The notes under the pieces: generated by a model
The model's database searches: none
Told to the model about the DNA's origin: nothing
What the model saw: only the letters and a program-made list of their open reading frames with translations
Program-made: the position numbers and the translations under genes
Assembly (NCBI GenBank): GCA_016212105.1
Contig: JACRHJ010000013.1
Coordinates: forward strand, 46,782-110,781
From: Nitrospirota bacterium
GTDB lineage: Bacteria; Nitrospirota; JACRHJ01
Length of the DNA: 64,000 bases
Reading direction: 5' to 3'
Shown: positions 5,956 through 58,809 of the stretch, piece by piece
Layout of the letters: each line of letters starts with the position of its first letter
Position numbering within the stretch: the stretch's first letter is position 1

Positions 5956-5959
5956 GACG

Positions 5960-6277
5960 TTGACCTCCGGTAATTAATTGTGCGGGCGCGGTTTTTCGCG
6001 CCCTTCCAAACTGTAGGGGCCGACCGTCGTGTCGGCCCTTGCGGTTGTTATTATGTAGGGGCGGGCCTCCGTGCCCGCCCTTGCGGTTTATTTGTTCGTC
6101 ATTCCCGCGAAGGCGGGAATCCAGGAAGTTGTAGGGCGCGACGCCCCCGGCGCGCCGGAATAAGGTGCGGGCGCGGAATCCGCGCCCCTACAATATTCAT
6201 ATACAGGCAGATTCTTCGCTTCGCTCAGAATGACACCAAAGAGGGCGGGCACGGGGACCCGCCCCTACATAAAATCC
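5960..6277. repeat. Intergenic mosaic of short hairpin repeat modules (families F, C, D, A, E, F, J, D)
   Basis: tgtaggggccgaccgtcgtgtcggccc; tgtaggggcgggcctccgtgcccgccc; gtcattcccgcgaaggcgggaatcc; tgtagggcgcgacgcccccggcgcgcc; ttcgcttcgctcagaatgacacc; gggcgggcacggggacccgcccctacataaaa. All recur elsewhere in the window. Confidence 0.85.
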
Positions 6278-6361
6278 AAATCCCCCTCATTCCCCCTTTT
6301 TCAAAGGGGGAGGTCAGGTCTTGTCCCCACTTTGTAAAAGGGGGGACTACAGGGGGGATTT
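6278..6361. repeat. 84-bp TIR-bounded hairpin element (copy 1), MITE-like; direct repeat of 6954..7038
   Basis: aaatccccctcattccccctttttcaaagggggaggtcaggtcttgtccccactttgtaaaaggggggactacaggggggattt. Terminal inverted repeats AAATCCCCC/GGGGGGATTT and an internal hairpin ccccctttttcaaaggggg. Confidence 0.75.
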
Positions 6362-6368
6362 GCCTTCC

Positions 6369-6854: not shown

Positions 6855-6953
6855 ACTGCAACTCCATACGTCGAGTCCGTCATTCCCGCTGGTGCGGGAA
6901 TCCAGGAACTTTACTGTTAGCAGTGACCGGTGATGATCATGCCCGGCCTCTTT

Positions 6954-7038
6954 AAATCCCCCTCAATCCCCCTTTTTCAAAGGGGGAGGCTTATGCATTG
7001 TCCCCACTTTGAAAAAGGGGGGACTACAGGGGGGATTT
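6954..7038. repeat. 84-bp TIR-bounded hairpin element (copy 2)
   Basis: aaatccccctcaatccccctttttcaaagggggaggcttatgcattgtccccactttgaaaaaggggggactacaggggggattt. About 85% identical to copy 1, same orientation. Confidence 0.75.
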
Positions 7039-7052
7039 GCTTTTCTCTCCCC

Positions 7053-7475
7053 TCACACCAGCTCCTTGCCCGTCGTCGCCATGCTCAGCTTGCCGTGCAC
7101 GACGCCCTTCGTCCCGATCATCCGGTCGGCAATCCTCTTGACCACCGAGGCCTTGCCGCGCACGACCATCACTTCGAGGCAGTTGTGCTCGTCCAGGTGC
7201 ACGTGCAGGTTAGATATTATCGCGTGGTAGAAGTGGTGCTGGAGGTCGTTCAGGGTGTCCGACAGCTCTCGCGTGTGGTGGTTGTACACGAGCGTGATCG
7301 TACCGACCACCTCCTGGTCCTCCTCCCACTCCCGGCCGACGAGCGCGTCCCGTATCAGGTCGCGTATCGCCTCGGAGCGGTTGGTATAGCCCTTCTCGGC
7401 GGTGAACCCGTCGAACCGGTCCATCAGCTTCTTGTCTATGGAAATCGCAATGCGTGTCAGGTCTTTTCCACCCAA
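7053..7475 (-). CDS. nikR: Nickel-responsive regulator NikR (RHH + ACT-like metal-binding domain)
   Basis: [16 protein letters not shown]...[16 protein letters not shown] (ribbon-helix-helix); C-domain H-rich ([20 protein letters not shown]). TTG start at 7475 with GGAGGG 9 nt upstream. Confidence 0.85.
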
Positions 7476-7518
7476 GGCCGTCCGCCCTCCGAAACCGGTT
7501 AATTTCAGCTATGCCGTT

Positions 7519-7547
7519 TATTATGTATGCTTAGGATTTCAAGTCAA
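7519..7547 (-). promoter_or_regulatory. Putative sigma70 promoter for nikR (TTGACT-17-ATAATA on minus strand)
   Basis: Minus strand reads cTTGACTtgaaatcctaagcatacATAATAaacgg, upstream of nikR. Confidence 0.35.
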
Positions 7548-7629
7548 GAAAAAAATGCCGGGGCCGCAACCATATTGGCGATGATGCGCATAAAATACAG
7601 CGTTAGTTGAACAATCCGCCAGAATTAAC

Positions 7630-7659
7630 TTGACATTAAAAGTACGGTATTGCTATTCT
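7630..7659 (+). promoter_or_regulatory. Putative sigma70 promoter for the ApbE-like gene (TTGACA-18-TATTCT)
   Basis: aacTTGACAttaaaagtacggtattgcTATTCTatg; divergent from the nikR promoter. Confidence 0.35.
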
Positions 7660-7731
7660 ATGTTATACGTTTTCGAAGTCAAGAACAGGGCCGGATAAAC
7701 TTCCCCCCGCTGTTCAGGGGCAGGACGCGGT

Positions 7732-8460
7732 TTGCTTATGTACGAGGAGCGGACTTACAGGGGCAGGGTGCGCGCGGACGGGCTCGTCGCATTCACGGCC
7801 GTCGTCAAGGAGACCGACCTCTTTATCCTCGCGGACAGCGACCTCTCGGCGCTCGCGCTCGAAGTGGTCATAAGGCACCGGCACCAGCTCGAGACCTACA
7901 TCGCGGGCCACCCGGAGTTCCTGACCTCGCTCGTGCCTGTCGAGCTGAAGCTCGGCGCGCCGGAGTCCGCCGTGCGCATGGCGAGGGCCGCGCTGCCCGC
8001 GAACGTCGGGCCCATGGCGGCGGTCGCTGGCACGTTCTCGGAGCTTGTCGGCGAGGCGCTCCTCGCCCGGTCGTCCCAGGCCATCGTCGAGAACGGCGGG
8101 GACATCTATATCAAATCGACAAGCGAGCGGGTTGTCGCCCTTTACGCCGGCGACTCGCCGCTCTCCGGCAGGGTCGGGCTTAACATCCGCCCTGGCGACA
8201 CGCCGCTGGGGGTATGCACGTCGTCGGGGCGGGTCGGCCATTCGCTCTCGCTCGGCAGGGCGCACGCGGCCTGCATAATATCGAAGTCCACCGCACTCGC
8301 GGACGCGGCCGCAACCGCCGTCGGAAACGCCGTGCAGGGGCCGGGCGACGTCGAGAAGGGCATTGCGCGCGCGCAGGAAATCGAAGGCGTCTTGGGCGCC
8401 GTGGTAATCGCGGGCGACCGGCTCGCCGCCTGGGGGCTGGTCGAATTGGTGAAACTGTAG
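7732..8460 (+). CDS. ApbE-like / UPF0280 family protein
   Basis: GPMAAVAGTFSE..., VENGGDIYIKS, LGVCTSSGRVGHSLSLGRAHAACIISKSTALADAAATA, resembling the ApbE fold; 242 aa. Confidence 0.55.
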   Translation: MLMYEERTYRGRVRADGLVAFTAVVKETDLFILADSDLSALALEVVIRHRHQLETYIAGHPEFLTSLVPVELKLGAPESAVRMARAALPANVGPMAAVAGTFSELVGEALLARSSQAIVENGGDIYIKSTSERVVALYAGDSPLSGRVGLNIRPGDTPLGVCTSSGRVGHSLSLGRAHAACIISKSTALADAAATAVGNAVQGPGDVEKGIARAQEIEGVLGAVVIAGDRLAAWGLVELVKL

Positions 8461-8948
8461 GGTGGGCTACGCCCCACCATTGCATATTGGATTTTGGTTC
8501 ACTGTAGGGCGCGACGCCCCCGGCGCGCCGAGGGTTGTCATTGCGAGGAGTCCCGCGCTTCGCGGGACGACGCGGCAATCTCCACCATAATAATACAAAC
8601 GGAGGAGGTTGCTTCGCTCCGCTCGCAAAGACAGATAATAACATGAAGGGCCGACACACGGGTCGGCACCTACATAAAAGCATGGCGGGCAATGCACGCC
8701 CTACAACTAATGTTGCAGGGGGCCGTACCAGGCGAAGCGCGTGTCAGCCCAACCTGTCACCCCCGTGAAAACGGGGGTCCATTTTAACCTTGCGCGGGAA
8801 AATGGATTCCCGCTTTCGCGGGAATGACAACCTTGAAAGGTCTGTCATGGCGGGCAATGCCCGCCCTGCAACTTCCTGGACCCCGTGTCAAGCACGGGGC
8901 GACAAGCATAATCCGTCATTCCCGCGAAGGCGGGAATCCAGGAATTTT
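8461..8948. repeat. Intergenic mosaic of hairpin modules (G, E, C, G-like, B, A, G-like, H, A)
   Basis: tgtagggtgggctacgccccacc; tgtagggcgcgacgcccccggcgcgccg; gggccgacacacgggtcggcacctacataaaag; gtcacccccgtgaaaacgggggtcc; ggattcccgctttcgcgggaatgac; ccccgtgtcaagcacgggg; gtcattcccgcgaaggcgggaatcc. Confidence 0.85.
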
Positions 8949-8979
8949 CACGAACACGAAACACGAACACGAAACACGG
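8949..8979 (+). promoter_or_regulatory. CA-rich tandem element (cgaacacgaaaca x2) occupying the SD position upstream of the FmdE-like gene; a second copy lies upstream of the GT2 gene at 58786..58806
   Basis: cacgaacacgaaacacgaacacgaaacacgg ends 12 nt before ATG 8991 with no SD in between. A 21-nt near-identical copy sits 13 nt before the ATG of the minus-strand gene 57888..58772. Confidence 0.4.
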
Positions 8980-8990
8980 AATTTAGCTAC

Positions 8991-9464
8991 ATGTCTTTCG
9001 ACTTCACAGCCCTCTACGAGTTCCACGGCCACCGCTGCCCGATGTCCACGATGGGCGCGCGTCTCGGTCTTGCCGCGATGGCCGCGCTCGGCGTGACGAA
9101 GGCCGACCAGTTCAAGGTCGAGGGGCTGTTCCATACGAAGAACTGCGCGCTGGACGGCATACAGTTCACCACCGGCTGTACGCTCGGGAACGGGAACCTC
9201 GCATATGCGGAGGAGGGACGCGCGGCGTTCACACTGAATCGGCGGGACGGCCGTGGCGGCGTAGTCGTGACGGTGTCCGGCGCCGCGCTCGAAAGGCTCT
9301 CCGGGTTCAAGGAGTTCAAGGCCCGGCTCATGGAGGAGCGCGATATAAGCGGCCTCGCCCGCGCGATGGAGATAGACGCGGAGATAAACAGGGGTTTCGA
9401 CGCCCTGGTCGACTGGGTACAGTCGGCGGACGAGGGCGGGTTGGTAACAGTGACAGCAGCTTGA
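8991..9464 (+). CDS. FmdE/FwdE-family domain protein (formylmethanofuran dehydrogenase subunit E-like)
   Basis: MSFDFTALYEFHGHRCPMSTMGARLGLAAM..., the HGHxCP motif of PF02663. The upstream part of the longest ORF (8790..) covers repeat modules and is rejected. Confidence 0.75.
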   Translation: MSFDFTALYEFHGHRCPMSTMGARLGLAAMAALGVTKADQFKVEGLFHTKNCALDGIQFTTGCTLGNGNLAYAEEGRAAFTLNRRDGRGGVVVTVSGAALERLSGFKEFKARLMEERDISGLARAMEIDAEINRGFDALVDWVQSADEGGLVTVTAA

Positions 9465-9476
9465 GGAGGTAGCCGC

Positions 9477-10409
9477 ATGGCCGCCAAAATATATGACGGG
9501 GTACTGGAGCTTATCGGCAAGACGCCGCTTGTGCGGCTTGTCCGGATGACCGGCGAGAAGGACGCGGCGGTCTATGCAAAGGTCGAGGGCGCGAACCCCG
9601 GCGGGAGCGTCAAGGACAGGATAGCGCTCTCGATGGTGGAGGAGGCCGAGAAGTCCGGCCACCTCAAGCCCGGCGGGCTGATAATAGAGCCGACGAGCGG
9701 GAATACCGGCATCGGCCTGGGCATAGTCGCGGCCATCAAGGGCTACAAGCTGATACTGACCATGCCGGAGACGATGTCCGTCGAGCGCAGGACGCTCCTT
9801 GCGGCGTACGGGGCGGAGCTTGTGCTGACCCCCGGCCCGGAGGGGATGCGGGGCGCGGTGGTAAAGGCGGAGGAGATAGCGGCCGCCAACCCCGGCAGCT
9901 TCATACCCCAGCAGTTCAACAACCCGGCGAACCCGGAGGTCCACAGGAAGACGACGGCGAGGGAGATACTCTCCGCGCTCGGCCCCCGGATAGACACGTT
10001 CGTCGCGGGCGTCGGCACCGGCGGCACCATCACCGGTGTAGGCGAGGTGCTCCGCTCCAAGAACAAGGACATAAAAATCGTCGCGGTCGAGCCGTCGGCG
10101 TCGCCCGTGCTGTCCGGCGGCACGCCCGGCCCGCACAAGATACAGGGCATAGGCGCGGGCTTTGTCCCGACGGTCCTGAACACGCAGATATACGACGAGA
10201 TAATACAGGTGACGAACGAGGACGCGGCGGATACAGCGAGGCGTCTCGCCGCCCAGGAGGGCATACTCGCCGGCATATCCTCCGGCGCGGCTCTTTTCGC
10301 CGCCCTCGCGGTGGCAAAGAGGCTCGGCAAGGGCAAGAACGTCGTCGTCATACTCCCGGACAGGGGCGAGCGCTACCTCAGCACGGGGCTGTTCGGGGGC
10401 GGGGCGTAG
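9477..10409 (+). CDS. cysK: Cysteine synthase (O-acetylserine sulfhydrylase)
   Basis: GKTPLVRL..., [10 protein letters not shown] (PLP lysine), [20 protein letters not shown]; 310 aa. Confidence 0.9.
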
Positions 10410-10410
10410 A

Positions 10411-10735
10411 TGTAACTTCCTGGGCTCCGTGTCAAAGCCTGCCCTGAGCCCCGGCTTTATGCATACCGGGGTAAACTCCGCCGAATGGGCACGGGGAGAC
10501 ACCAAAAGCCTGTCATTCCCGCGAAAGCGGGAATCCAGCGACGTTGCTTTTATCGTACCATTGAGAAAGGCAGGGCCGACACACGGGTCGGCCCCTACAT
10601 AAAAACAGAACCTTCGGCGCGCCGGGGGCGTCGCGCCCTACGAAATACCGCAGTGGGGGCCACACAGAAGTTCTTGGGCCGCCTTCTTACAAGAAGGCGG
10701 GACTTGTATCGTTAAAGCTGGCGTTTCTCATGCGC
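10411..10735. repeat. Intergenic mosaic (H with nested N insertion, A, C, E, K)
   Basis: ccgtgtcaaagcctgccctgagccccggctttatgcataccggggtaaactccgccgaatgggcacgggg; gtcattcccgcgaaagcgggaatcc; gggccgacacacgggtcggcccctacataaaaac; ggcgcgccgggggcgtcgcgccctac; agttcttgggccgccttcttacaagaaggcgggactt. Confidence 0.85.
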
Positions 10736-10772
10736 CGTTGACCACAACCTGTTCTGACAGGGGGAGAGTGAT

Positions 10773-11237
10773 ATGCAGTTATCGACCAAGGGGCGGTATG
10801 CGGTCAGGGCTATGTTCGACCTGGCGTTTTATTCGCAGGGGGAGCCTGTCCCGCTGTCGAGGATATCGGAGCGGGAGGAGATATCGCTCCATTACCTTGA
10901 GCAGCTCTTCAACAAGCTCCGTAAGGGCGGCGTGGTCGAGTCCGTGCGCGGCCCGTCCGGCGGGTTCAAGCTTGCGAGGAAGCCCTCCGAGATCTCCGTG
11001 GAGGAGATAATCAGCATCGTCGAGGGTCCGATAGTCCCGGTCTCCTGCCTGGAGCACAAGGACAAGGACAGGGTCTGCCACAGGGCGGAGAAATGCGTCA
11101 CGTTCATCCTCTGGAAGCGGCTGGGCAAGAACATAACCGAGTTCCTGTCCTCGGTCACGCTCCAGGACCTGGTGGACGAGGCGAGGGAGCTTCTCGACTC
11201 CGGGAAGGTCACGCACGACTATATGTTCTACATATAA
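10773..11237 (+). CDS. Rrf2-family transcriptional regulator (IscR/CymR-like, Cys-containing)
   Basis: MQLSTKGRYAVRAMFDLA... wHTH, SGGFKL, Cys residues C92/C101/C107; adjacent to cysK. Confidence 0.85.
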   Translation: MQLSTKGRYAVRAMFDLAFYSQGEPVPLSRISEREEISLHYLEQLFNKLRKGGVVESVRGPSGGFKLARKPSEISVEEIISIVEGPIVPVSCLEHKDKDRVCHRAEKCVTFILWKRLGKNITEFLSSVTLQDLVDEARELLDSGKVTHDYMFYI

Positions 11238-11239
11238 GT

Positions 11240-11400
11240 TCTTGTGTCGCCCCGTGCTTGACACGGGGTCCAGGAAGTTGTAGTTGCCCGATTTATCGGG
11301 CGGTTGTCAATGCAGGGCCGACACGCGGGTCGGCCCCTACATAAAAACAAGAACTTCCTGGATTCCCGCCTTCGCGGGAATGACGGCTATACTTGCAATA
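11240..11400. repeat. Intergenic mosaic (H, O, C, A)
   Basis: ccccgtgcttgacacgggg; ttgcccgatttatcgggcgg; gggccgacacgcgggtcggcccctacataaaaac; ggattcccgccttcgcgggaatgac. Confidence 0.8.
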
Positions 11401-11416
11401 GAAAGGACGTTCCATC

Positions 11417-12331
11417 ATGGACGACCACAAGCTTAAGGTCTTCTGCACGGTGGCCGAGACCAAGAGCTTCTCCAGGGCGTCGGAGATAATCCACCTGACC
11501 CAGCCGGCCGTGAGCCTGCAGGTGCAGGCGCTCGAGGAGATATACGAGACGAAGCTGTTCGACCGCTCCGGCGGGACGGTGACGCTCACCCCGGCGGGCG
11601 AGCTGTTGTACAACTACGCCAAGGACATACTCGGCCTGTACGCCTCGGCGAAGAAGGACATCAACGCGATGATCGGCCTCGTCAAGGGGAGCCTGTCCAT
11701 AGGCGCAAGCTCGACCGTCGGCAACTACCTCCTGCCCTCGGTCATCGTCGCCTTCCGGAAGAACCACCCGAGGATAAAGATAAACCTCATCGTCAGCAAC
11801 ACGAAGATGGTCGTGGAAAAGCTCCTCGCGGGCGAGATAGACCTGGGCATAGTCGAGGGCGACGTGACCAAGCACAAGCTTGTGGTGGACAAACTCCTGC
11901 CGGACGAGCTGGTGCTCATCATGAGCCCGGACCACCCGTGGGCGAAGCGCAAGAACGTCTCCGTCTCGGAGCTGCCAAAGGAGCCGTTCGTCATGCGCGA
12001 GCAGGGCTCCGGGACCAGGCAGATGATAGAGAAACGGCTCGAGGAGAACAAGATCTCGCCGGCCAGCCTGACGGTCTCCCTGTACCTCGGCAGCACGGAG
12101 GCGATAAAGACCGCGGTCGAGGACGGGCTCGGCGTGTCCATAGTGTCGTCGTGGGCGGCCCGCAAGGAGCTGCATGCCGGGAGCCTCGTCGCCGCCACAT
12201 TCAAGGACGCGAAGTTCCCGAGGCACTTCACGCTTATCCAGAGGAAGAACTCGTTCGCCTCGCACACGCAGGAGGAGTTCCTCGAGTTCCTCAAGATATA
12301 CCCCTACGAGAACCCGATGAAAAACGCATGA
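11417..12331 (+). CDS. LysR-family transcriptional regulator
   Basis: N-terminal HTH (LKVFCTVAETKSFSRASEIIHLTQPAVSLQVQALEE) and a LysR substrate-binding domain; 304 aa. Confidence 0.9.
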   Translation: MDDHKLKVFCTVAETKSFSRASEIIHLTQPAVSLQVQALEEIYETKLFDRSGGTVTLTPAGELLYNYAKDILGLYASAKKDINAMIGLVKGSLSIGASSTVGNYLLPSVIVAFRKNHPRIKINLIVSNTKMVVEKLLAGEIDLGIVEGDVTKHKLVVDKLLPDELVLIMSPDHPWAKRKNVSVSELPKEPFVMREQGSGTRQMIEKRLEENKISPASLTVSLYLGSTEAIKTAVEDGLGVSIVSSWAARKELHAGSLVAATFKDAKFPRHFTLIQRKNSFASHTQEEFLEFLKIYPYENPMKNA

Positions 12332-14886: not shown

Positions 14887-14887
14887 C

Positions 14888-15140
14888 CTCGTTTGCCTTT
14901 ATGTAGGGGCAGGTCCCCGTGCCTGCCCTGCCTGTCACCCCCGCGAACGCGGGGGTCCGGTGACTTGGTTCCGGGCTTGTTTCTTGATTGACGAAAGTCC
15001 CTGGATTCCCGCTGGAGTTTACCCCGGTACTCCTAAGGCCGGGGCGGGAATGACGTTCAACTAAAACGTGAATTGCCGTACCTTTTCTTAACTCACAAAA
15101 GTTCTTGGGCCGCCTTCTTTCAAGAAGGCGGGACTTTGTT
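14888..15140. repeat. Intergenic mosaic (D, B, A with nested N insertion, K)
   Basis: tgtaggggcaggtccccgtgcctgccc; gtcacccccgcgaacgcgggggtcc; ggattcccgc[tggagtttaccccggtactcctaaggccgggg]cgggaatgac; aagttcttgggccgccttctttcaagaaggcgggactt. Confidence 0.85.
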
Positions 15141-15156
15141 CTTCGAGGTTTATGTA

Positions 15157-20119: not shown

Positions 20120-20124
20120 CCCCT

Positions 20125-20410
20125 TCCAGATTTGACACCCGCCGATTCCTCCGGTAATATTTATTCAACCCGCCGGGTTGTCATTCCCGCGAAAGCGGGA
20201 ATCCATTGGAAAAGCATAAAGCCAAAATGGACCCCCGTTTTCACGGGGGTGACAATCAAGGGATAAGTAGTAGGGTGGGCTGCGCCCACCAATAATAATC
20301 GGTGGGCATAGCCCACCCTACATGTTCGAGGTCTTTGTAGGGCGCGACGCCCTCGGCGCGCCGAGCCGTCAGACGATCGGTGCATAGCCCACCCTACATA
20401 TACAGGAGCG
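20125..20410. repeat. Intergenic mosaic (A, B, G, E, G)
   Basis: gtcattcccgcgaaagcgggaatcc; ggacccccgttttcacgggggtgac; tagggtgggctgcgcccacc...ggtgggcatagcccaccctaca; tgtagggcgcgacgccctcggcgcgccg. Confidence 0.85.
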
Positions 20411-20414
20411 CCTT

Positions 20415-23587: not shown

Positions 23588-23943
23588 GCCGAGGTTTCGT
23601 CGCCGCGCTCCTGTCCGGGCTCGCCTGCCCCGGCGCGGGGCAGATATACAACAGGCAGTACGTAAAGGGCGGGATACTTGCCGCCATAACGCTCATTATC
23701 GTCGGCGCGGTTTTCTATCTTACATGGACCGGGATGTCCGAGGCCACTTCGTCCATGCCCCCGGAGGAGGTGCTCCTGGACCTCTTCGGCATTGCCCGCC
23801 GCGTCCTCGAATCCAACAGGGAGACGTTCCTCCGGCTAACGGCCGCGTTCGCCGTCGTGTGGGTGTATGGCATGGTTGACGCATATGTGTGCGGCGGACG
23901 GGTAAAAGACCTCGACACGCCCGGCACGCGTGGGTCTTTGTAG
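23584..23943 (+). CDS. Small membrane protein (TM2/DUF4870-like GxGQxYNxQxxKG motif); TTG start overlapping the upstream stop
   Basis: The tail of ORF 22729..23943 reads MSRGFVAALLSGLACPGAGQIYNRQYVKGGILAAITLIIVGAVFYL... after TTG 23584, which is preceded by GAGGAAG. Not listed separately in the ORF track. Confidence 0.45.
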   Translation: MSRGFVAALLSGLACPGAGQIYNRQYVKGGILAAITLIIVGAVFYLTWTGMSEATSSMPPEEVLLDLFGIARRVLESNRETFLRLTAAFAVVWVYGMVDAYVCGGRVKDLDTPGTRGSL

Positions 23944-24068
23944 GGTGCGACGCCCCCTCAAGCCGATTGTCATTCCCGCGAAAGCGGGAATCCATTGTAA
24001 TGGCCGAGTCAAATTGGACCCCCGTTTTCACGGGGGTGACAGGCAGGGCCGACACACGGGTCGGCCCC
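23944..24068. repeat. Intergenic mosaic (E-like, A, B, C)
   Basis: tgtagggtgcgacgccccc; gtcattcccgcgaaagcgggaatcc; ggacccccgttttcacgggggtgac; gggccgacacacgggtcggcccctacatgaaag. Confidence 0.85.
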
Positions 24069-24071
24069 TAC

Positions 24072-24710
24072 ATGAAAGCAAGAAGATACACCTTGCCCGA
24101 AGACGCCTACAACATAGAATCCGGCGAGGACAAGGCCTGGCGCGAGCTGGCCGCCGCCGGCCCGGAGTCGGTCGTGAAGCGGAGCCTCGCTGCCTACGAC
24201 GCCGCGTCCGGCAGCTACACCCTGACTGTCTTCGGCGAGGAGTACCTCGTTTCACCCGCCACGCGGACCATATCCAACCTCTCAAACCCGTCACGCGCTG
24301 ACGAAATCCTGCTACGCCTCGCTGTACCCGTCTACCTCGTGAACGCCCGCGCGGTTGAGCCGTCCGGCGTGCTGGTCAAGGAGTTCACCGGCGGCGAGAT
24401 ATTCCTCAAGGGCACACACGTCCTGCCGACGGACGAGATAGCGAAGAAGTACGGAAGCGACGGTGATTATTTCCTGAGGGCGGGGATGGCGGAGCTTGGC
24501 GGAGCGCCGGTGAGGCTGGGTGATGCGGCAATCGGGTTCAGGCCGTTCCCGCGCGTCTCGATGACGATGATACTCTGGCTCATGGACGAGGAGTTTCCCG
24601 CGCGGGCGAGCCTTCTCTTCGACGGAAACGCGGACAGGCACATGCCTATTGACGTGGTCTGGGCGGCCGCCCTGCTGGCGTGTGAGAGGATGCTGAAGAT
24701 CCTGAATTAA
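24072..24710 (+). CDS. Hypothetical protein (212 aa)
   Basis: ATG 24072 immediately after the repeat block. Host-like GC; no family recognised by eye. Confidence 0.55.
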   Translation: MKARRYTLPEDAYNIESGEDKAWRELAAAGPESVVKRSLAAYDAASGSYTLTVFGEEYLVSPATRTISNLSNPSRADEILLRLAVPVYLVNARAVEPSGVLVKEFTGGEIFLKGTHVLPTDEIAKKYGSDGDYFLRAGMAELGGAPVRLGDAAIGFRPFPRVSMTMILWLMDEEFPARASLLFDGNADRHMPIDVVWAAALLACERMLKILN

Positions 24711-24716
24711 TATCAG

Positions 24717-29070: not shown

Positions 29071-29104
29071 TTTATGCTGCCTTCTGTAGGGGCCGGAAAA
29101 ATGC

Positions 29105-29300
29105 CGGCCCTCGTTGATTCTGGTTTATGTAGCTGCCCGATTCATCGGGCGTTTTTAATAGCGCCCACAACTGAGCGGGTTACAACTGTTTGTCACCCCC
29201 GTGCAAACGGGGGTCCATTTTGACGTTATTCATGAAAATGGATTCCCGCTTTCGCGGGAATGACGATATCGAGAGTTGGCGCGGGAACTATCCCTGCCAA
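29105..29300. repeat. Intergenic mosaic (O, B, A)
   Basis: ctgcccgattcatcgggcg; gtcacccccgtgcaaacgggggtcc; ggattcccgctttcgcgggaatgac. Confidence 0.8.
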
Positions 29301-29309
29301 CACGCCCCC

Positions 29310-34475: not shown

Positions 34476-36161
34476 TTACGACTTCAGCTCCGACGCCTTC
34501 TTCCCGAGAGACCTGGCCTGGGAGGTGAGCACCTCCACCCCGTCGTTCATCCTGGCGACCAGGTCGACGTTGCCCACGACGCTGTCCTGTATGCGGGCCA
34601 CAAGTTCCTCTATCCTGGCGCTGTCGTCCAGCTGCGTCTTCACCGCGTGGCGCATCTGGCCCGTCATCTCCGAGACCTGGCCGACCGCGTCCTTCAGCCG
34701 CCGGCTGCCCTTCGCCTGCTCGACAGTGGACTTCCTCAGCGCCATCGACAGCTCTTTTATCTTCGAGGCCGAGAGCATGACGCCCTCGGCGGAACGCGCC
34801 TGCTCCTGGGTCGCACCGGAAATCTTCGACGTCATTTCCGCTATGCCAGCGACCGCCTGGCTCACCTGCATCACCTTGTCCACCTGCTCCGCCGTCGCCG
34901 AGGCTATCTCGCCGGTCACTTCCTTGGAGATGACGACGCCCTCGATGATCTTGCCCAGCGCCTCGCCCGCCCTTGCGGTCAGGACGACGCCCTCCTCGAC
35001 CCTGGCCTGGCCGGACTCCATGGACCTGACCGCGAGCGTGACGTCCCTCTGCACCGCCTTGATTATCTTCACGATCTCCTTGGTGGAGACGCCGGTCCTC
35101 TCCGCAAGCTCCTTTATCTCGTCCGCGACGACCGCGAAGGAGCGGCCCTGCTCGCCCGCCTGGGCCGCGATTATCGCGGCGTTCAGCGCGAGCAGGTTGG
35201 TCTTCTCGCTGACCTCCGCTATGACCTTGTTTATCTCGTCGATGGCCTTCGAGCTTCGCCCAAGTCTCCTGACCATCTCGGCCCCGCCCTCGACCTCTTC
35301 CCTTATGCGCTCCATGCCCTCGATGGTCTGCTGGACCGCCACCTTGCCGGTCTCGGCGTCCGAGACGACCTCCTCGGCTAGCTCCGCCGAGCGGCGGGTG
35401 TTCTTGTCCACCCGGGCGAACGAGACCTGAATGCTCTCGATGTTGGCATTGGTCTTTTTCGCCAGCGCGGCGAGCTGGTCCACGCTCCCGGCGGTCTCGA
35501 CTATGGACATCGCCATGCTGTCGGTCATCGAGGCGCTCTCGACGATGGAGTCGAACAGCGCGCCCGCAGAGGAGGAGACGTCCTCGACGGAAGCCGCGAG
35601 CTGGCTTACCGCCACCGCGCTCTCGGACGCCACGGACATCACGCGCTCCACGTTCTCGGAAATCATGCCGCCCGAGCCGTTCAGCTCGCGCATCGCCTCG
35701 GTCACTGTCTCGACCGAGCCTATCTGCGTCTCGGAGTAGTCGATCACCTCGCGGCAGCGCGCGGAGATGCCGTCGGCCGCGGCGAGCATGTCTGCGGAGG
35801 ACCTCTCGACCTCGCCGCCTATCCCGGCCATGCGTCCGGCCAGCCTGTCGAGCCCGGCCCTTATCGCGTCCAGCTCGTCGCGTCCGGAATCCTGAGATGC
35901 GCCGGGCGTCCCGGCCATCGCGTCCACCGCGCCGGACAGCCTGGAAAGCGGGCCTATGACGAGGAGCCCGAAGGCGTAGTACAAGGACGCGACGGCGAGG
36001 CCCGCCCCGAGCAGAGCCAGGAACGACACGGCCGTGACGGACAGCCCGTCGCCGTAGATGACGAGCGCCGCGCCGCCAGGCAGAAGGCCTATGGCGGCTG
36101 ACGCAGCGGCGGAGGCTATGAATTTGACGCCGAGGCCTTTACGGCGCATCTTGTTCTCCAC
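34476..36161 (-). CDS. Methyl-accepting chemotaxis protein (membrane-anchored, no large periplasmic domain)
   Basis: Two TM segments, HAMP-like region and an MCP signalling domain ([35 protein letters not shown]). Confidence 0.9.
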
Positions 36162-36164
36162 GTG

Positions 36165-36350
36165 CCGGCGGTTGATTACCTAAATCCCCCATCCTCTGAT
36201 AAGAGGGGGGCTGGGTGGTGTTATTAATTCAGCAACATAATAGGCAAACTTCCTGGACCCCGTGTCAAGCACGGGGAGACGAACAAGCACACGTCATTCC
36301 CGCCCCGGCTTTAGACATACCGGGGCAGGCTCCAGCGGGAATCCAGTGAC
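36165..36350. repeat. Intergenic mosaic (M, H, A with nested N insertion)
   Basis: cctctgataagaggggggctgggtggtg; ccccgtgtcaagcacgggg; gtcattcccgc[cccggctttagacataccggggcaggctcca]gcgggaatcc. Confidence 0.85.
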
Positions 36351-36414
36351 TTTTGTTACTTCGCATGGTTTGCACATAATGCTGCCAGCTAAATATGAAG
36401 TACCGCAACCTGCG

Positions 36415-36961: not shown

Positions 36962-39859
36962 CTACTTGTATTCTATGCCGTAGATCTGCTTCATCATCTT
37001 CCGCACGCCCTCGTAGTCCGAGTCGGAAGACTTGACGAAGCCGTCGTACTCCGGGTCTATCGCCCGGAGCGCCTTCGCGGCGGCGGGGTCCGTGACCTTC
37101 ATGGCGGCCAGCGCCTCCCGCAGCTGCTCCCGCGTTGCCTTGTCCAGGTTCTTGCCGGCGACAACGTTGAAGTTCGGGATGTCTCCGGAGACGTGTACCA
37201 CGCGGAGCCCCTCCTCCTGGTGCTGCCTGGCGATGGACACCGCCATGCCGCCGGCGTCCGCGTCGCCCTCCAGCACCGCCCTGACCACCTCGTCCTGGCG
37301 GTGCATGTACTTGTATGACTTGAGGTCCTGGAGCTTGATCCCGGCCTCTGCCAGCACCGCCCTCGGCATCAGGTGCGAGGTCGAGGACTTCTCGTCCCCG
37401 AACGCGAACGTCCTGCCGGCGACGTCCGCGAGCGAGTTAACGCCGCTGCCCTCTCGCGTCGCGATCACCGAGTTCGTGGACGGGCGGCCCTTGGCGGACG
37501 CGGTGACGAGCACCTTTGCCCCGAACTTGTGCCTCGCCTCGACGTACGTTGTCGGGCTCATGTAGCAGATGTCCGTCCTGCCCTGCCCGAGGTCGTTCAC
37601 GGTCTCCGACATGTCGTGGCCGGCCACCACCTCGACCTTGACCCCGAGCCTGTCGGACAGGTACTCGGCGAGCGGGGTGAAGTGCCTCCTCATCGCTGAC
37701 GCGTCCTCTATCGGTATCACGCCCATCCGGAGCGTCTTGTCCGCGAGGTTGTATTCCGACATCAGCACGAAGTGGTTTATCTCCTCCCTGAGGACGTCTG
37801 CCTGCCTGGTCAGCTCCGTGACTGACTGGTCCATCTCGGACGCGAGCGTTACGGACTGAGCGGTTATGTCCCTTATCTTCTCTATCGCGCCTACTATCTC
37901 CTGGCTGCCCTTCCTCTGCTCGGACGTCGCGGAGGCTATGTGCTGCACCTTCTCGGAGACGTTCTCGACCGCCATCGTGATCTGCTTGCTGCCCTTGGCC
38001 TGCTCGGCCATCGCGTTACGCACCTGCTTGGCTATCTCGCTCATCTTCTCCGAGGCCATCATTATCTGCTCGGTGCCCTTCGCCTGCTCCTGCGTCGCCT
38101 TGAGTATGTGCTGCACCATGTCGCTGATGGACAGCATCGCGTCCGAGACCTGGCGTATCCCCTCGGCCTGCTCGACCGTCGCCTTCTCGATGCCCTTCGA
38201 CATGCTGGCCGACTTCGACGACGACTCGACTATCTTGACCAGCGCGTCCTTTGCCTCGTATGCTATCTTAACGCCCTGCTCGACGCTGTCGCGGCCGCTC
38301 TTTATGGACACGACCGCGTCCCTCGCCTCGGTCTGGACCGCGCCGATTAGCTTCGCTATCTCGGACGTGGACGAGGACGTCCGCTCCGCCAGGTCCTTTA
38401 TCTCGCTCGCCACGACCGCGAAGCCCTTGCCGTGCTCGCCCGCCTGGGCGGCGAGTATGGCCGCGTTAAGCGCGAGGAGCGACGTCTGGTCCGTGACCTC
38501 GTCGATGACGTTCAGTATCTCGCCTATCTCCTCCGAGCGGCCGCCGAGCTGCTCTATGACGTGCGCGGCCTTGACGACAGTGTCCTTTATCTCCTCCATG
38601 CCCTTTATGGTCTTCTCTACCGCCCTCATGCCGAGCTCAGACGCCTCGGCCGTGACCTTCTCGGACAGCCCGGTGGACTCTTTCGCCACCGACTCGACCT
38701 CCTTGATGGACGCGCCCATCTCTGTCGCGGACGCAGTGGTCTCCTCGGCCGCAGACGACAGGACGTCGACGTTCTCGGAGACCTGCCTGACCGTCGCGGC
38801 CATCTCCATGATGGAAGAAGACGTAGACTCGGTCGAGGCGGACAGGTCGTTCGTGATGCTCGCCACCTCGTCTATCGAGGCGGCCATCTCCATGATGGAA
38901 GAGGAAGACGACTCCGCGGAGGACGAGAGAGACTCGACGCTCTCCGCGACCTCGCGTATGGAGGCGTTCATCTCCTCCATCGACGAGGAAGTGGACTCCG
39001 TCAGCTCCTGCTGCACCAGCGCGCCCTCTGATATCTTCTTCGAGTTTATCGCTATCCGCTCTGTCGCGTTGGTCACGCTTATGGAGGCGTCCTTTACCTT
39101 GCCGAGCATGTTCTTGAGGTTCGCCACCATCGTGTTGATGGCGCCGCCGAGCGCGCCCAGCTCGTCCTCCGTCTTTACGTCTATGGTCTTGGTCAGGTCG
39201 CCCTTGGCGATCTGCGTCGCGGTCACCACGAGGTAGGATATCGGGTCCGTTATGAACCTCGTGATGAAGAACGTGAACGCGAAAATGGCGATGACCAGCG
39301 AGACGACGCCGATGAGCACCGACCTTTTCACAAGCTGGTCCTTCTTCGCGCCAAGCTCCTCGTAGCCGAGCCCCAGCCGGAGCGCGCCGATGTGCTTGTC
39401 CTCTGCGTCCTTGAGCGGTATGACGGCGTCGTAGTACTTCTTGTCCTTGTAGGTGAAGGTCCTGTACTTCCCCTCCTCCACCTCCTTGGCCGCAGCGGCG
39501 CTGACCGCGTCGTCCATAACCTTCCCGACCTGCCCCGGGTCGTCGGCGTAAAGCACCTTGCCGGCCGTGTCGGTGATGATGCAGTACCCGATGTTCTCGT
39601 GCTTCTGGGTAAGTACCATGCACTCGTCGCTCACGCCCTCCAGCGAGTCGAGCGTAAGCCCGAGGTTCAGCGCCTTGGACAGGTTGTTCCTGAACTCCTG
39701 CCCGACCACGAACGCCTTGTCCAGGAACGCGTCCGTGTAGCTGCTCGTGAACCCGTAGGTCAGCGCCACGGTCAGCAGTGTGACCACGAGCACCAGCATC
39801 CCGGTGACCATGCCGAGCGCCCTGAATTTCAGCGATTTAATGGTGAAGTCCAGCTTCAT
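36962..39859 (-). CDS. Methyl-accepting chemotaxis protein with a periplasmic sensor, HAMP, long MA domain and a C-terminal PhnD/SsuA-like substrate-binding (PBP) domain
   Basis: The periplasmic domain resembles the sensor of the kinase at 17447. MA domain ([34 protein letters not shown]). C-terminal ~270 aa: MGVIPIEDASAMRRHFTPLAEYLSDRLGVKVEVV...CYMSPTTYVEARHKFG...TFAFGDEKSSTSHLMP (phosphonate-binding-protein-like). Confidence 0.85.
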   Translation of the reverse strand: MKLDFTIKSLKFRALGMVTGMLVLVVTLLTVALTYGFTSSYTDAFLDKAFVVGQEFRNNLSKALNLGLTLDSLEGVSDECMVLTQKHENIGYCIITDTAGKVLYADDPGQVGKVMDDAVSAAAAKEVEEGKYRTFTYKDKKYYDAVIPLKDAEDKHIGALRLGLGYEELGAKKDQLVKRSVLIGVVSLVIAIFAFTFFITRFITDPISYLVVTATQIAKGDLTKTIDVKTEDELGALGGAINTMVANLKNMLGKVKDASISVTNATERIAINSKKISEGALVQQELTESTSSSMEEMNASIREVAESVESLSSSAESSSSSIMEMAASIDEVASITNDLSASTESTSSSIMEMAATVRQVSENVDVLSSAAEETTASATEMGASIKEVESVAKESTGLSEKVTAEASELGMRAVEKTIKGMEEIKDTVVKAAHVIEQLGGRSEEIGEILNVIDEVTDQTSLLALNAAILAAQAGEHGKGFAVVASEIKDLAERTSSSTSEIAKLIGAVQTEARDAVVSIKSGRDSVEQGVKIAYEAKDALVKIVESSSKSASMSKGIEKATVEQAEGIRQVSDAMLSISDMVQHILKATQEQAKGTEQIMMASEKMSEIAKQVRNAMAEQAKGSKQITMAVENVSEKVQHIASATSEQRKGSQEIVGAIEKIRDITAQSVTLASEMDQSVTELTRQADVLREEINHFVLMSEYNLADKTLRMGVIPIEDASAMRRHFTPLAEYLSDRLGVKVEVVAGHDMSETVNDLGQGRTDICYMSPTTYVEARHKFGAKVLVTASAKGRPSTNSVIATREGSGVNSLADVAGRTFAFGDEKSSTSHLMPRAVLAEAGIKLQDLKSYKYMHRQDEVVRAVLEGDADAGGMAVSIARQHQEEGLRVVHVSGDIPNFNVVAGKNLDKATREQLREALAAMKVTDPAAAKALRAIDPEYDGFVKSSDSDYEGVRKMMKQIYGIEYK

Positions 39860-44003: not shown

Positions 44004-46871
44004 CTACTGTATCCTCCGCACCATCTCCCTGACGCCGTCGTAGTCCGAGTCGCGGGACTCTATGAAGCCGGTGTAGTCCTTGTCGAGCGACGTGAGGATG
44101 AGCTTCTCCTCCGCGGACCTCGGCGAAAGCGAGGTGAGCGCGAGCTTCAGCTTGTCGGCGAGGACGGTGTCGAGGCCCGGCCTCGCGCAGAAGTTGAACT
44201 CCGGTATGTCGTCGGAGGTCTTTATGAACCGGAGGCCCTTCTCCTTGTACTGGTTCGCGGTGGTCTCCCTGAGGCCGCCCGCGTCCAGCTCGCCCAGGAG
44301 CACCGCCTTGGCCACGTCGTCGTGGTGGCCCAGGAAGCGGTACTCCCTGAGGTCCGTAAGCTTGACGCCCGCCTTGGCGAGCATGTAACGCGGCACCAGG
44401 TAGCTGGACGTGGACATCTCGTCGCCAAAGGCGAACGTCCGCCCCTTCAGGTCCTCGATGCGCTTGACGTCGCTGTCCTGCCTCGTGACTATCATCGTGT
44501 GGGTGTACGGGACGCCGTTCCTCATCGCCTTCGCGAGGAGCGACACTCCGTAATGCTCGTGCGCCTCTATGTACGTCGTCGGCGTCATGTAGCAGATGTC
44601 CGCGACCCCCGTGCCGACGTCCTTTACCGCGTCCGTGAACGACGAGGTGAGCTTGAAGACCACCTCGCGCCCGACCCTGCGGGAGAGGTACGCCGCGAGC
44701 GGCGAGAACTTCTTGTACATCTGGGCCGGGCTCTCCAGCGGCACCAGGCCGAGCTTGATTATCTCGGAGCCGGCCCCGGTAATCCTGAATGTGCCGACCT
44801 CGTCCTTCAGCTCCTCAATGTGCCTGGCGAGTTCCTCGACCGCGAGGCCCATCTCGGAGGCCAGCGTCTCGTTCTCGAGCGCGACGTCCCTGATGCGCTC
44901 GACCGAGCGGACCATGTCCTCGCTGCCCTTCCTCTGCTCGTTAATCGCGTTCGCTATGTGCTGGGCCTGCTGGTTGGTGTTCTCGACCGCCATTATTATA
45001 AGGTCGGAGCCCTTGGACTGCTCGGCGGTCGCGGTCCGTACGTGCCTCGCCACCTCCTTGACCTTGTCCGCCTCGCGCAGTATCTGGTCGGAGCCCTGCG
45101 TAAGCTCGGACGTCGCCCGCTGTATGGACTGGACTATGTCCCTGGTGTTGACCATCGCCTCGGCGACACGCTTGGCGCCCTCCGCCTGCTCCATCGTCGC
45201 GTCCTCTATCCGCTTGGACATCTCGGAGGACTGCGCCGACGACTTCACTATACCCTCCAGCACGTCCTTGGCCTGGTAGACGACGGCCTGGCCCTCCTCG
45301 ACCGCGGCCTTGCCGGACTCCATCGCCTGCACCGCCTCGGAGGCCTCGGCCTGGACGGTGGCGATGAGCTTGGAAATCTCCTGCGTGGACGACGCGGTCC
45401 TCTCCGCCAGGTCCTTTATCTCGTCAGCGACCACCGCGAATCCCTTGCCGTGCTCGCCCGCCTGGGACGCGAGTATGGCAGCGTTCAGCGACAGAAGCTC
45501 CGTCTGGTCGGTGACCTCGTCTATGACGTTCAGTATCTCGCCTATCTGGCGCGAGCGGCCGCCGAGCCGGTTGATGACCTCAGCCGAGCGGTTGACCTCG
45601 TTCTTGATCTTGCTCATTCCCTCGATGGCGCGCTCCATCGCCCCCATACCGAGCCTCCGGGCGTCGGTCGTGACCTTCTCCGAGAGCTGGGCCGACTCCT
45701 TGGCCGCGCCCTCGACGTCCCTGATGGAGTTCGCCACACGCGTGATTGACTCCACGCTCGTGTCGGCCGCGTCCGACAGGACTCCGACGTAGCGCGAGAC
45801 CTCACGGATGGACGCGGTTATCTGGCTGATGGACGAGACGGTCGAGTCTACCGAGGACGACAGCACCGCCGCGCTCCCCGCGATCTCGTCTATCGAGGCG
45901 GTCATCTCCAGTATCGAGGACGACGTGGACTCAGCCGAGTAGTACAGGCTGTCCGCGGACTCCGCTACGCCCTTTATCGAGGCGTTTATCTCCTCGATGC
46001 CGCCGGACGAGGACTCGACCGCGCGCGCCTGGACGTGCGCGCCCTCCGCCACCTTTGCAGAGTTGACGACTATCTGCGTAGAGACCGAGCCGACCTGGTA
46101 GCTCATCCGGTTTATCCTCTGGACGACCCTCTGGACGCTGTCTATGAAACTGTTGAAGCTCCCGGCGAGCTGCCCCATCTCGTCCTTCGACCCGGACTCC
46201 ATGCGGTATGTGAGGTCCTTGTCCCTCTCCATCTGTGTCATGACGCCGACCGCCTTCTCTATCGGTGAAAGCACGACTCTCCTGAGCCAGAGCGCGAGCA
46301 GGAGCGCGACAAGCGCGATCGCGGCAAACGCGTTCAGTATCGCCATGAGCTTGTGGTCCTTGATGTCGGCGTAGACCTTCTCGAGCGAGACGGATACGGC
46401 GAGGACGCCCTGGTACTTGTGGTCGCTCCCGTGGCAGCCCTGGCAGCTCTCCTCGTTCACGAGCGGCTTGAAGAGCGTCAGCGACCGCTTGTCCTTCAGC
46501 TCGGAGACGATGCCCGTCGCGAGCGCCTCCCTCACCCTTGCTTCGACGTCGGCGGGCGGGTCGGGGTAGCCCGCGTCGAGGTATATCTCGTCGCCGTCCT
46601 TGTTGAAGACGCGGACCTCCTTTATGCCGGACACAGTCCTCAGCTCCGAGACCATACCGCTCGCGGACTCCGGCTGGCCGGTGTTCATGACCGTCTTCAT
46701 ACTCGATATGATGGCCGAGGCCAGAAGCTCCGTCTTCGAGTGGTTGGCGGCGAGCAGCTCGGTCTCCTCCTTCTGGAGCGTCATGTATACGAGGAGCCCG
46801 AACCCGCCCATGAGCGTGGCCACGACTATCGCTATAATCTTGGTCTGCATGCGGCTGATGAACATTTTCAC
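44004..46871 (-). CDS. Methyl-accepting chemotaxis protein with a heme-c (CXXCH) periplasmic sensor domain and a C-terminal PhnD/SsuA-like PBP domain
   Basis: TM1 [19 protein letters not shown]; ~140-aa periplasmic domain containing SCQGCH (nt 46445..46431), DUF3365/Tll0287-like; TM2; HAMP; MA domain; C-terminal [35 protein letters not shown]...[16 protein letters not shown]. Paralogous to 36962..39859, with >85% nt identity across parts of the MA domain. Confidence 0.85.
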
Positions 46872-48579: not shown

Positions 48580-48584
48580 GCTGC

Positions 48585-48855
48585 TACCTCGACTTCATGT
48601 AAAACAACCGCGAAAACCCCGCCTTCTTGTAAGAAGGCGGCCCAAGAACTTTTGTGAGATATTGTAGGGTGGGCATTGCCCGCCATGCTTTTATGCAGGG
48701 GCCGACCCGTGTGTCGGCCCCTGCCTGTCACCCCCGTGAAAACGGGGGTCCATGTTGACTTTATGCGTTACAATGGATTCCCGCTTTCGCGGGAATGACA
48801 ATACATCGTATAAAGGCGGATTCTTCGCTTCGCTCAGAATGACACCATTAAAACA
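48585..48855. repeat. Intergenic mosaic (K, G, C, B, A, J)
   Basis: ccccgccttcttgtaagaaggcggcccaagaactt; tgtagggtgggcattgcccgcc; tgcaggggccgacccgtgtgtcggcccc; gtcacccccgtgaaaacgggggtcc; ggattcccgctttcgcgggaatgac; ttcgcttcgctcagaatgacacc. Confidence 0.85.
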
Positions 48856-48858
48856 AAC

Positions 48859-50841: not shown

Positions 50842-50844
50842 GAG

Positions 50845-51170
50845 GAAATCTCCTGAAAGAATCTACGACAAAGTCCCGCCTTCTTGAAAGAAGGCGGCCC
50901 AAGAACTTCTAAACGGCTTCCGTGCGAAACTCGTCGTCCCGAGCGAAGCCGAGGGACCTGCTTTTATGTAGGGGCCGACCCGTGTGTCGGCCCTGACTCT
51001 TCATTAGATTTCGTAGTGGCCGGCCTCTGAATGGCCCGTATGGAGTCCGTGCCCTAAAATTATCGTGTCGCCCCGTGCTTGCCCTCCATTGTCACCCCCG
51101 TGAAAACGGGGGTCCATTTTGACCTTGTGCATTACAATGGATTCCCGCTTTCGCGGGAATGACAAGCGTT
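50845..51170. repeat. Intergenic mosaic (K, C, H, B, A)
   Basis: aagtcccgccttcttgaaagaaggcggcccaagaactt; tgtaggggccgacccgtgtgtcggccc; ccccgtgcttgccc; gtcacccccgtgaaaacgggggtcc; ggattcccgctttcgcgggaatgac. Confidence 0.85.
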
Positions 51171-51172
51171 AT

Positions 51173-56131: not shown

Positions 56132-56156
56132 GGGTTTACGGAACCAGTATGCAAAA

Positions 56157-56188
56157 AGCCCCGTCCTTTTGGACGGGGCTTTTTTTAT
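56157..56188 (+). terminator. Rho-independent terminator after atpE
   Basis: agccccgtcc-tttt-ggacggggct followed by ttttttta. Confidence 0.8.
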
Positions 56189-56189
56189 T

Positions 56190-56385
56190 CAGGTTTTATG
56201 TAGGGGCCGACCCGTGTGTCGGCCCTTCATTTGTCTTATGTCTTGTGTAGGGGCGGGTCCCCGTGCCCGCCCTGGTATTACCGGCGCGCCGGAGTGCCGC
56301 GCCCTGCAAATTCAAAGGCAAGGGCCGACACGACGGTCGGCCCCTACAATTTTGATGGGCGCGGAAAACCGCGCCCATAATCAAT
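56190..56385. repeat. Intergenic mosaic (C, D, E-like, C, F)
   Basis: tgtaggggccgacccgtgtgtcggccc; tgtaggggcgggtccccgtgcccgccc; gggccgacacgacggtcggcccctacaa; gggcgcggaaaaccgcgccc. Confidence 0.85.
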
Positions 56386-56386
56386 A

Positions 56387-57718: not shown

Positions 57719-57724
57719 AATCTA

Positions 57725-57885: not shown

Positions 57886-57887
57886 TT

Positions 57888-58772: not shown

Positions 58773-58785
58773 AAGTAACGTGTCT

Positions 58786-58806: not shown

Positions 58807-58809
58807 TTA

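Follow-up and report, generated by a model that had tools for sequence, protein, structure and literature searches.

Two unrelated genes of a Nitrospirota bacterium start directly downstream of nearly the same CA-rich sequence, and neither appears to have a Shine-Dalgarno (SD) sequence of its own. The question is whether this sequence is a dedicated signal for translation or regulation, or whether it reached the two leaders in another way. The whole 64,000-nt stretch of DNA that was analyzed is called the window. Coordinates of its features are collected in Table 1, and loci in other genomes are designated by L numbers.

The CA-rich tracts and the genes that follow them

The 21-mer CGAACACGAAAYACGAACACG has two exact matches in the window, one on each strand, compared with 0.01 expected from shuffled sequences. 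Tandem Repeats Finder detects a 13-nt-period array at the first site (CACGAACACGAAA x2.3, 100% match) and a degenerate tandem array at the second. The sequence common to both copies is a 29-nt unit, ACGAACACGAAA[C/T]ACGAACACGA[A/G]ACACG, with an identity of 27/29, and TTTT[C/A] lies directly 5' of this core in each case. The core of copy 1 comprises 2.3 units of the 13-nt repeat, contains four ACA motifs and has no T. The tract composition is 52% A, 31% C, 17% G and 0% U, and CACGAA units are repeated in both copies at a regular spacing with a 6/7-nt sub-period. Looser motif searches of the 64-kb window found no further copies, leaving the total at two.

Copy 1 is followed by an FmdE-family gene and then by a PALP/CysK-like gene with a strong SD of its own (anti-SD duplex of -13.5 kcal/mol); copy 2 is followed by a GT2 glycosyltransferase gene. 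The Pfam matches agree with the gene identities given in the preliminary description. The ATG codons at 8991 and 58772 are backed by 100% identical database proteins of equal length, annotated as derived from a Nitrospirae MAG (P0001, 157 aa, and P0067, 294 aa, respectively), and the N-termini of orthologs agree with both starts. Both copies are extragenic and start-proximal, the nearest upstream stop codon being ~490 nt (copy 1) and ~240 nt (copy 2) away. That a CA/ACA-rich element is present twice, each time in sense orientation relative to the downstream gene, is confirmed. The fixed distance of 12-13 nt to the ATG that had been described for it is not. Measured in a common register, from the last CACG, the gap is 12 nt for copy 1 and 6 nt for copy 2, and from the end of the 21-mer it is 19 nt and 13 nt, a difference of 6 nt either way.

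SD strength was scored as the duplex energy between the canonical anti-SD and positions -20 to -3 of each start; the canonical tail was assumed, the 16S gene lying outside the window. The scores of -3.5 kcal/mol for FmdE and -3.0 kcal/mol for GT2 are at background level (random-position median of -3.0), which upholds the earlier reading that neither gene has an SD. The other starts in the window, some of them picked by eye, have a median of -7.1 kcal/mol, and 31/37 (~84%) score at or below -6 kcal/mol. Leaderless transcription from an internal promoter was considered and rejected, as inspection by eye and a promoter scan found no sigma-70-like -10 box properly placed before either ATG.

The placement of the copies was judged against a model of uniformly random positions in the spacers of the window, which total 6.3 kb and face 27 gene starts. 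Under this model, two sense-oriented copies that both end no more than 12-20 nt from a start have p 8e-4 to 2e-3, a post hoc value for N=2; within the window, the start-proximal position is therefore unlikely under random intergenic placement. Copy 1 lies between two occurrences of the heptamer GGAATTT, a direct repeat that resembles a target-site duplication. Copy 2 has TTA alone on both sides, and the target-site reading, which fits copy 1 only, was rejected.

Table 1. Positions of the CA-rich copies, their downstream genes and the repeat-associated features of the window
Feature	Position	Strand	Description
CA-rich copy 1	8945-8978	+	TTTTC 8945-8949, then 29-nt core ACGAACACGAAACACGAACACGAAACACG 8950-8978
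CA-rich copy 2	58779-58812	-	TTTTA 58812-58808, then 29-nt core ACGAACACGAAATACGAACACGAGACACG 58807-58779; 3 ACA motifs
21-mer match, copy 1	8951-8971	+	exact
21-mer match, copy 2	58786-58806	-	exact
13-nt-period tandem array	8949-8978	+	at copy 1
Degenerate tandem array	58779-58807		at copy 2
GGAATTT direct repeat	8941-8947 and 8978-8984		flanks copy 1
Leader after copy 1	8979-8990	+	12 nt, AT-rich, SD-less, GAATTTAGCTAC
Leader after copy 2	58773-58778	-	6 nt, SD-less, TTACTT
FmdE-family gene	8991-9464	+	157 aa; Pfam PF02663, E 2e-26; first gene after copy 1
PALP/CysK-like gene	9477-10409	+	Pfam PF00291; 12 nt past FmdE stop; SD GAGGAGG
GT2 glycosyltransferase gene	57888-58772	-	294 aa; Pfam PF00535; downstream of copy 2
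REP-like GC-rich hairpin mosaic	8461-8944		fills the 530-nt AbpE-like to FmdE spacer
REP-like hairpin array	58813-59046		274-nt spacer upstream of GT2; GC-rich hairpin nearest the element at 58823-58843
Promoter-like GTGTCA-16-CATAAT	8885-8912	+	sigma-70-like; within REP-like module upstream of copy 1
Spacers with dense REP-like mosaics	5956-6368, 6855-7052, 8461-8990, 10410-10772, 11238-11416, 14887-15156, 20120-20414, 23940-24090, 29071-29309, 36150-36414, 48580-48858, 50842-51172, 56132-56386, 57719-57887, 58773-59046		
Conserved Nitrospirota cluster	7053-12331		NikR divergent; every spacer repeat-expanded
Segment without confident gene call	23588-24716		1.1 kb; REP modules at ~23940-24090
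Genes sharing similar 300-nt segments	34476-36149, 36962-39859, 44004-46865	-	segments 34989-35288, 38273-38572, 45291-45590
84-nt-period internal repeats	38712-39013, 45814-45947		in two of these three genes

Orthologous leaders and the repeat arrays of the window

Orthologs of both genes were compared in related Nitrospirota. Those of FmdE come from three distinct loci (L016, L017-L019 and L020) with 60-72% amino-acid identity, and those of GT2 from L069-L071 with 75-78% identity and the same MPDLSICIVNTN start. The order NikR / AbpE-like - FmdE - CysK - Rrf2 - LysR is common to the window and the FmdE ortholog loci. The CA-rich element precedes neither FmdE in L016-L020 nor GT2 in L069-L071. 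Anti-SD energies are -3.2 and -3.4 for FmdE (L017 and L020) and +2.2, -3.1 and -4.0 for GT2 (L069-L071); FmdE of L016 is ambiguous, its value of -8.9 coming from a G-run 15-22 nt upstream. Neighboring genes in the same loci reach about -10. Thus, five of the six distinct orthologous loci are SD-less, and all six are without the element. Because the orthologs that do not carry the element are SD-less as well in five of six cases, SD independence is ancestral for both genes. To judge from these comparisons, the CA-rich element is a recent, lineage-specific addition.

The element had been described as conserved and as replacing the SD of the two genes. It is missing at both orthologous positions, where there is no sign of an old regulatory site, and the orthologs of FmdE (L017 and L020, with L016 ambiguous) and of GT2 (L069-L071) do without an SD in its absence; both descriptions are accordingly withdrawn. 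SD-independent initiation can proceed on locally unstructured A/U-rich leaders in an S1-dependent manner. The ortholog leaders of both genes are short, AU-rich and SD-less in just this way, and the window copies keep 6-12 nt of such sequence. In contrast to that type of leader, the CA-rich tract is an addition upstream of it and not the leader itself.

The spacers that hold the two copies are enlarged. The spacer before FmdE is 530 nt in the window versus 31-112 nt in orthologs, and that before GT2 is 274 nt versus 1-42 nt. REP-like modules of at least six families occur in about 18 spacers of the window (examples are GTCATTCCCGCGAAGGCGGGAATCC, GTCACCCCCGTGAAAACGGGGGTCC, TGTAGGGGCCGACCCGTGTGTCGGCCC, CCCGCCTTCTTGTAAGAAGGCGGG and GACCCCGTGTCAAGCACGGGGCGACA), and mosaics of them enlarge most window spacers several-fold compared with related genomes. 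In both spacers the CA-rich copy forms the gene-proximal edge of the REP-like array, with no further module between it and the gene; all other REP-like modules in the window lie at least 25 nt from starts.

One module upstream of copy 1 contains a promoter-like sequence which, as a match to consensus, might put copy 1 within a 5' UTR about 70 nt long. This module recurs upstream of copy 2 with a shorter promoter spacer, and there the scan does not report it. Some promoters might be provided by REP modules. Reading the hairpin before copy 2 as a terminator was judged weak, since the gene-strand T-run begins 5 nt past the stem and the scan does not flag it.

Other regions of the window have features of their own. 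The FmdE cluster corresponds to a conserved Nitrospirota cluster (cf. L016, L017 and L020); its CysK to Rrf2 spacer measures 363 nt versus 21-116 nt in orthologs, and its Rrf2 to LysR spacer 179 nt versus 18-27 nt. The 1.1-kb segment without a confident gene call has ORF-like sequence on both sides of its REP modules and a GC content that falls to about 0.52 downstream; insertion of repeats may have disrupted a gene here. Three large minus-strand genes with similar 300-nt segments, two of them with internal repeats, look like genes for paralogous repeat-domain proteins.

A hairpin repeat family in other genomes

Public collections were scanned with the pattern ACGAACACGARANACGAACACG, and the counts do not include the window's own contig. 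A 22-29-mer of the element is carried by 63 outside loci in total, mostly from Candidatus Binatia. Species-representative genomes account for 15 loci (8 in Candidatus Binatia MAGs, 4 in 'Deltaproteobacteria' MAGs and the remainder in others) and the metagenome scan for 48; the scan of viral contigs gave 0 matches. An inverted CGTG-rich arm, CGTGaTCGTGCTCGTGacTCGTGCTCG, precedes the matched sequence by 3-15 nt in 34 instances and completes a long imperfect hairpin, each arm of which is built of 6/7-nt CGTG units. Most of the 15 genome loci form stable hairpins when folded, and the reverse strand is the more stable in 15/15 because C.A mismatches turn into G.U pairs. The consensus fold of 21 hairpins has 17 pairs, with a U.G wobble in 19/21 and essentially no covariation, as expected of a repeat family rather than of an RNA evolving under structural selection. 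The window copies match the full 29-nt right arm plus the T-rich loop (TTT-ACGAAC...) of the outside hairpins, and the arm at L066 is identical to copy 2 at 28/29 positions. Motif searches showed the inverted left arm to be absent throughout the 64-kb window.

The family is dispersed within genomes. Exact matches are found on two contigs in each of three MAGs (L002/L004, L003/L011 and L009/L013), and second copies occur within L013 and L040. Outside hairpins are placed directly after stop codons and face either way. For sense-oriented copies, 35-67 nt separate the preceding stop from the 22-mer, which leaves 0-20 nt between this stop and the left arm; for antisense copies, a stop codon lies 1-3 nt past the arm, often within its last TCACG or TTACG unit. 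After collapsing orthologous and duplicate loci, there are about 13 sense and 12 antisense contexts. Some ten loci have the hairpin embedded as the central part of a larger palindrome of ~160 bp, bounded by the outer inverted repeats CAGGCTGCTCAAAAAGAyCTCAGAGG, and no consistent target-site duplication was found for these ~160-bp elements. The hairpin is kept at one orthologous spacer in L007, L015, L024, L027, L057, L060 and L061, where the flanking codons vary. Where a short spacer between co-directional genes is taken up by the hairpin, the right arm inevitably comes to lie close to the next start codon. Most of these arms are followed by an ordinary SD (L002, L004, the L007 group, L048 and L068). 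At least one lineage has the arm abutting an SD-less ATG (L021/L026), and L038, whose downstream ORF is only weakly coding-like, may be another. The specific leader element of the preliminary description is, outside this genome, largely a dispersed repeat: one arm of a hairpin that faces either way.

The repeat itself is typical REP/MITE-like DNA. The outside copies resemble the REP, BIME and REPIN elements of Enterobacteria and Pseudomonas in being short, extragenic, multi-copy, hairpin-forming, stop-adjacent and found in either orientation. REP singlets are remnants of two-armed REPINs (PMC3337134, PMC3116915), and the mosaic arrays and the single arms, read as remnants of a two-armed element, extend the likeness (PMC3116915, PMC3337134). 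The sequences are unrelated, however, and each arm is here itself a 6/7-nt tandem repeat. The outside copies form the stem-loop and lie near stop codons; the window copies have no partner arm and lie near starts. As to copy number, there are 2 copies in the 64 kb of the window and several per genome in Binatia MAGs.

MITEs such as the Correia elements of Neisseria can land in 5' UTRs and alter expression. Several Binatia-like loci resemble MITEs, with the hairpin at the core of a ~160-bp palindrome bounded by outer inverted repeats beginning CAGGCTGCTCAAAAAGA. The window copies do not share these features: they measure about 34 nt versus about 100-400 bp and have no TIR, and GGAATTT is found at copy 1 only.

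The other REP modules of this genome occur in none of the 63 outside loci, except for one palindrome in L002 that fits a loose pattern of module A, so the link to Binatia depends on the identity of a low-complexity 29-mer. Rfam 15 gave no gathering-score match to anything in the window, and a permissive E-value search of 8450-9050 returned sub-threshold chance matches to REP modules only. In the 18 outside loci searched against Rfam the element was unmatched, the sole gathering-score match being a tRNA gene of a Binatia MAG (L011, 799-870), some 125 nt away from the hairpin repeat. An exact-sequence search did not find the element in the searchable literature, and the CGTG/ACGAAC hairpin repeat family of Binatia-like genomes is apparently undescribed.

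Origin and possible role of the tracts

The account that we favor, with moderate confidence, is that the two copies are orphan halves (loop plus right arm) of a dispersed palindromic repeat, that they lie in leaders which were already SD-independent, and that they serve at most as a passive spacer or standby site. A short palindromic repeat of the REP/REPIN or MITE type would have been the source, and the copies would have arisen by truncation of the full element such that each keeps only the T-rich loop and the right arm, much like a REP singlet, the nearest known parallel. Their arrival in this Nitrospirota lineage was probably recent and coincided with that of the REP-like arrays that enlarged both spacers. 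The element would be transcribed inside the 5' leader. The tract lacks a pairing partner, is free of U and poor in G, and is therefore predicted to be single-stranded; in predicted structures the tracts are mostly unpaired, with a mean unpaired probability of 0.60-0.61 versus about 0.47 in other leaders. It would then not sequester the start codon as the neighboring GC-rich hairpins would. Two things would make such a tract tolerable at 6-12 nt from the AUG: the SD independence of both genes before its arrival and its inability to fold. By keeping the start codon apart from the stable upstream hairpins, the unstructured A/C-rich tract would most likely affect translation in a passive way. At most it would offer a modest ribosome standby surface, and it would be neither a dedicated SD substitute nor the mark of a regulon.

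Two observations do not sit easily with this account. The orphan-half reading requires that the left arm was lost twice independently, which is not parsimonious and counts against it, and the location of both copies in sense orientation, 6-12 nt from a start, counts against random placement of a repeat. The start-proximal position is compatible with the relic right arm of a hairpin that once filled a short ancestral spacer. It is also compatible with selection retaining an unstructured initiation region.

An active part in initiation has to be weighed at this point. In Salmonella, translation from the yifK and dppA leaders is enhanced by ACA motifs (PMC3879156), and unstructured 5' tails of the CA series favor ribosome standby (PMC5934652). 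The window tracts are similar in placing multiple ACA motifs in an unstructured tract directly 5' of the initiation region, but the enterobacterial cases have an SD and were demonstrated by mutagenesis, whereas the present ones are SD-less, unconserved, from another phylum and known from sequence only. An enhancer or ribosome-standby role is possible. It would make the repeat an exapted module whose CA/ACA tract recruits the 30S subunit, by S1-dependent standby or as an ACA enhancer, and which the two SD-less genes need because growth of the REP-array spacers broke their proximity to the upstream gene. Growth from 31-112 to 530 nt and from 1-42 to 274 nt would indeed have removed translational coupling. 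The case for recruitment includes two SD-less genes in an SD-using genome, tracts that abut their starts in sense orientation (p about 1e-3) with four and three ACA motifs, no U, 17% G and a predicted unpaired probability of 0.60-0.61 versus about 0.47, the boost to translation given by ACA motifs and CA-rich 5' tails in enterobacteria (PMC3879156, PMC5934652), and the outside arm that abuts an SD-less ATG in L021/L026, with L038 as a possible second example. The ACA motifs are predicted to lie in a single-stranded tract 6-12 nt 5' of the AUG, as an enhancer would require. Against recruitment, the tract is in no ortholog, and the FmdE orthologs are SD-less and uncoupled (gaps of 31-112 nt) without it; retention at the regulated gene, which an enhancer should show, is lacking for FmdE in L016-L020 and for GT2 in L069-L071. 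The copies are not equidistant from the AUG (a difference of 6 nt), an ordinary SD follows the element in most outside loci, and the known ACA enhancers act jointly with an SD. The in-silico opening energy of positions -15 to +15 puts the wild-type sequences at the 35th (copy 1) and 12th (copy 2) percentile of random spacers, no more than a marginal advantage; a shuffled element gives the same value as wild type, and deletion of copy 2 has no effect. Exaptation as a recruitment site is the main rival to the favored account, though a rather unlikely one. A bolder version is doubtful indeed: that the repeat arm was exapted as a portable SD-independent cassette rescuing REP-isolated genes, with GU-rich arms pairing in trans to form a repeat-based post-transcriptional regulon.

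Regulation through the shared sequence fares less well than recruitment. A DNA- or RNA-binding regulator that recognizes CACGAA units could use the tracts as an operator or RNA-protein site and co-regulate the FmdE-cysK operon with GT2, and the 27/29 identity, equivalent positions and regular repeats with a 6/7-nt sub-period would suit such a site. The sites are missing from orthologous promoters and leaders, the same sequence is elsewhere a stop-codon-proximal palindromic repeat in either orientation, and a 13-bp period is off helical phasing for direct-repeat DNA binders. Neither an Rfam family nor the searchable literature yields a match, and no functional link between FmdE-cysK and GT2 is evident. 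A common operator is very improbable on this evidence, and the co-regulation of sulfur metabolism with an exopolysaccharide gene that had been proposed has nothing behind it beyond the shared repeat. The alphaproteobacterial LexA-type site GAAC-N7-GAAC was also tried and rejected, the spacing here being N9. Pairing of the tract with a GU-rich sRNA or a complementary-arm transcript, in the manner of GcvB, would be favored by the GU-rich reverse complement of the tract, by the complementary arms present in many transcripts of other genomes and by the targeting of CA-rich enhancers by GcvB (PMC3879156). Yet the window contains no left arm or antisense copy, and its best non-self duplex in 64 kb has an energy of -23.1 kcal/mol, compared with -22 to -30 kcal/mol for shuffled elements. 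The search for complementary sRNAs suggested at the outset thus turned up no window segment that beats shuffled controls, and we give an antisense target scarcely any weight. Independent replication slippage would make the tracts similar to one another, and to the Binatia arms, by chance or mutational bias. The sequence is of low complexity, and comparable 6-, 7- and 13-nt arrays are found in unrelated genomes: at least 5 repeats of the 13-mer GACGAACACGAGA in L012 3701-3761, from a Polyangiaceae MAG, ACGAACACGAGAT x3 in L029 513-548 / L045 4391-4426, an (ACGAAC)n microsatellite in L046 728-905 and a CACGAGA/CACGAGG heptamer array in L050 147-292. Some convergence by slippage is possible given the 13-nt arrays in the unrelated taxa L012 and L029/L045, but slippage as the whole explanation is barely credible in view of a 27/29 identity held in one register together with the T-run, and of a 21-mer expected 0.01 times in the window.

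With truncated repeat arms as the preferred origin, these results add a CGTG/ACGAAC hairpin family that is widespread in Binatia-like soil and groundwater bacteria, with a fragment in a Nitrospirota genome. If the passive reading is right, the two tracts are an ordinary by-product of repeat proliferation, and they caution that a motif common to two leaders need not mean co-regulation. They also suggest that SD-less genes can tolerate a repeat insertion almost at the start codon as long as the insert is unable to fold. Should the enhancer reading prove true, the tracts would represent a natural, mobile-repeat-derived form of SD-independent initiation beyond the enterobacterial models.
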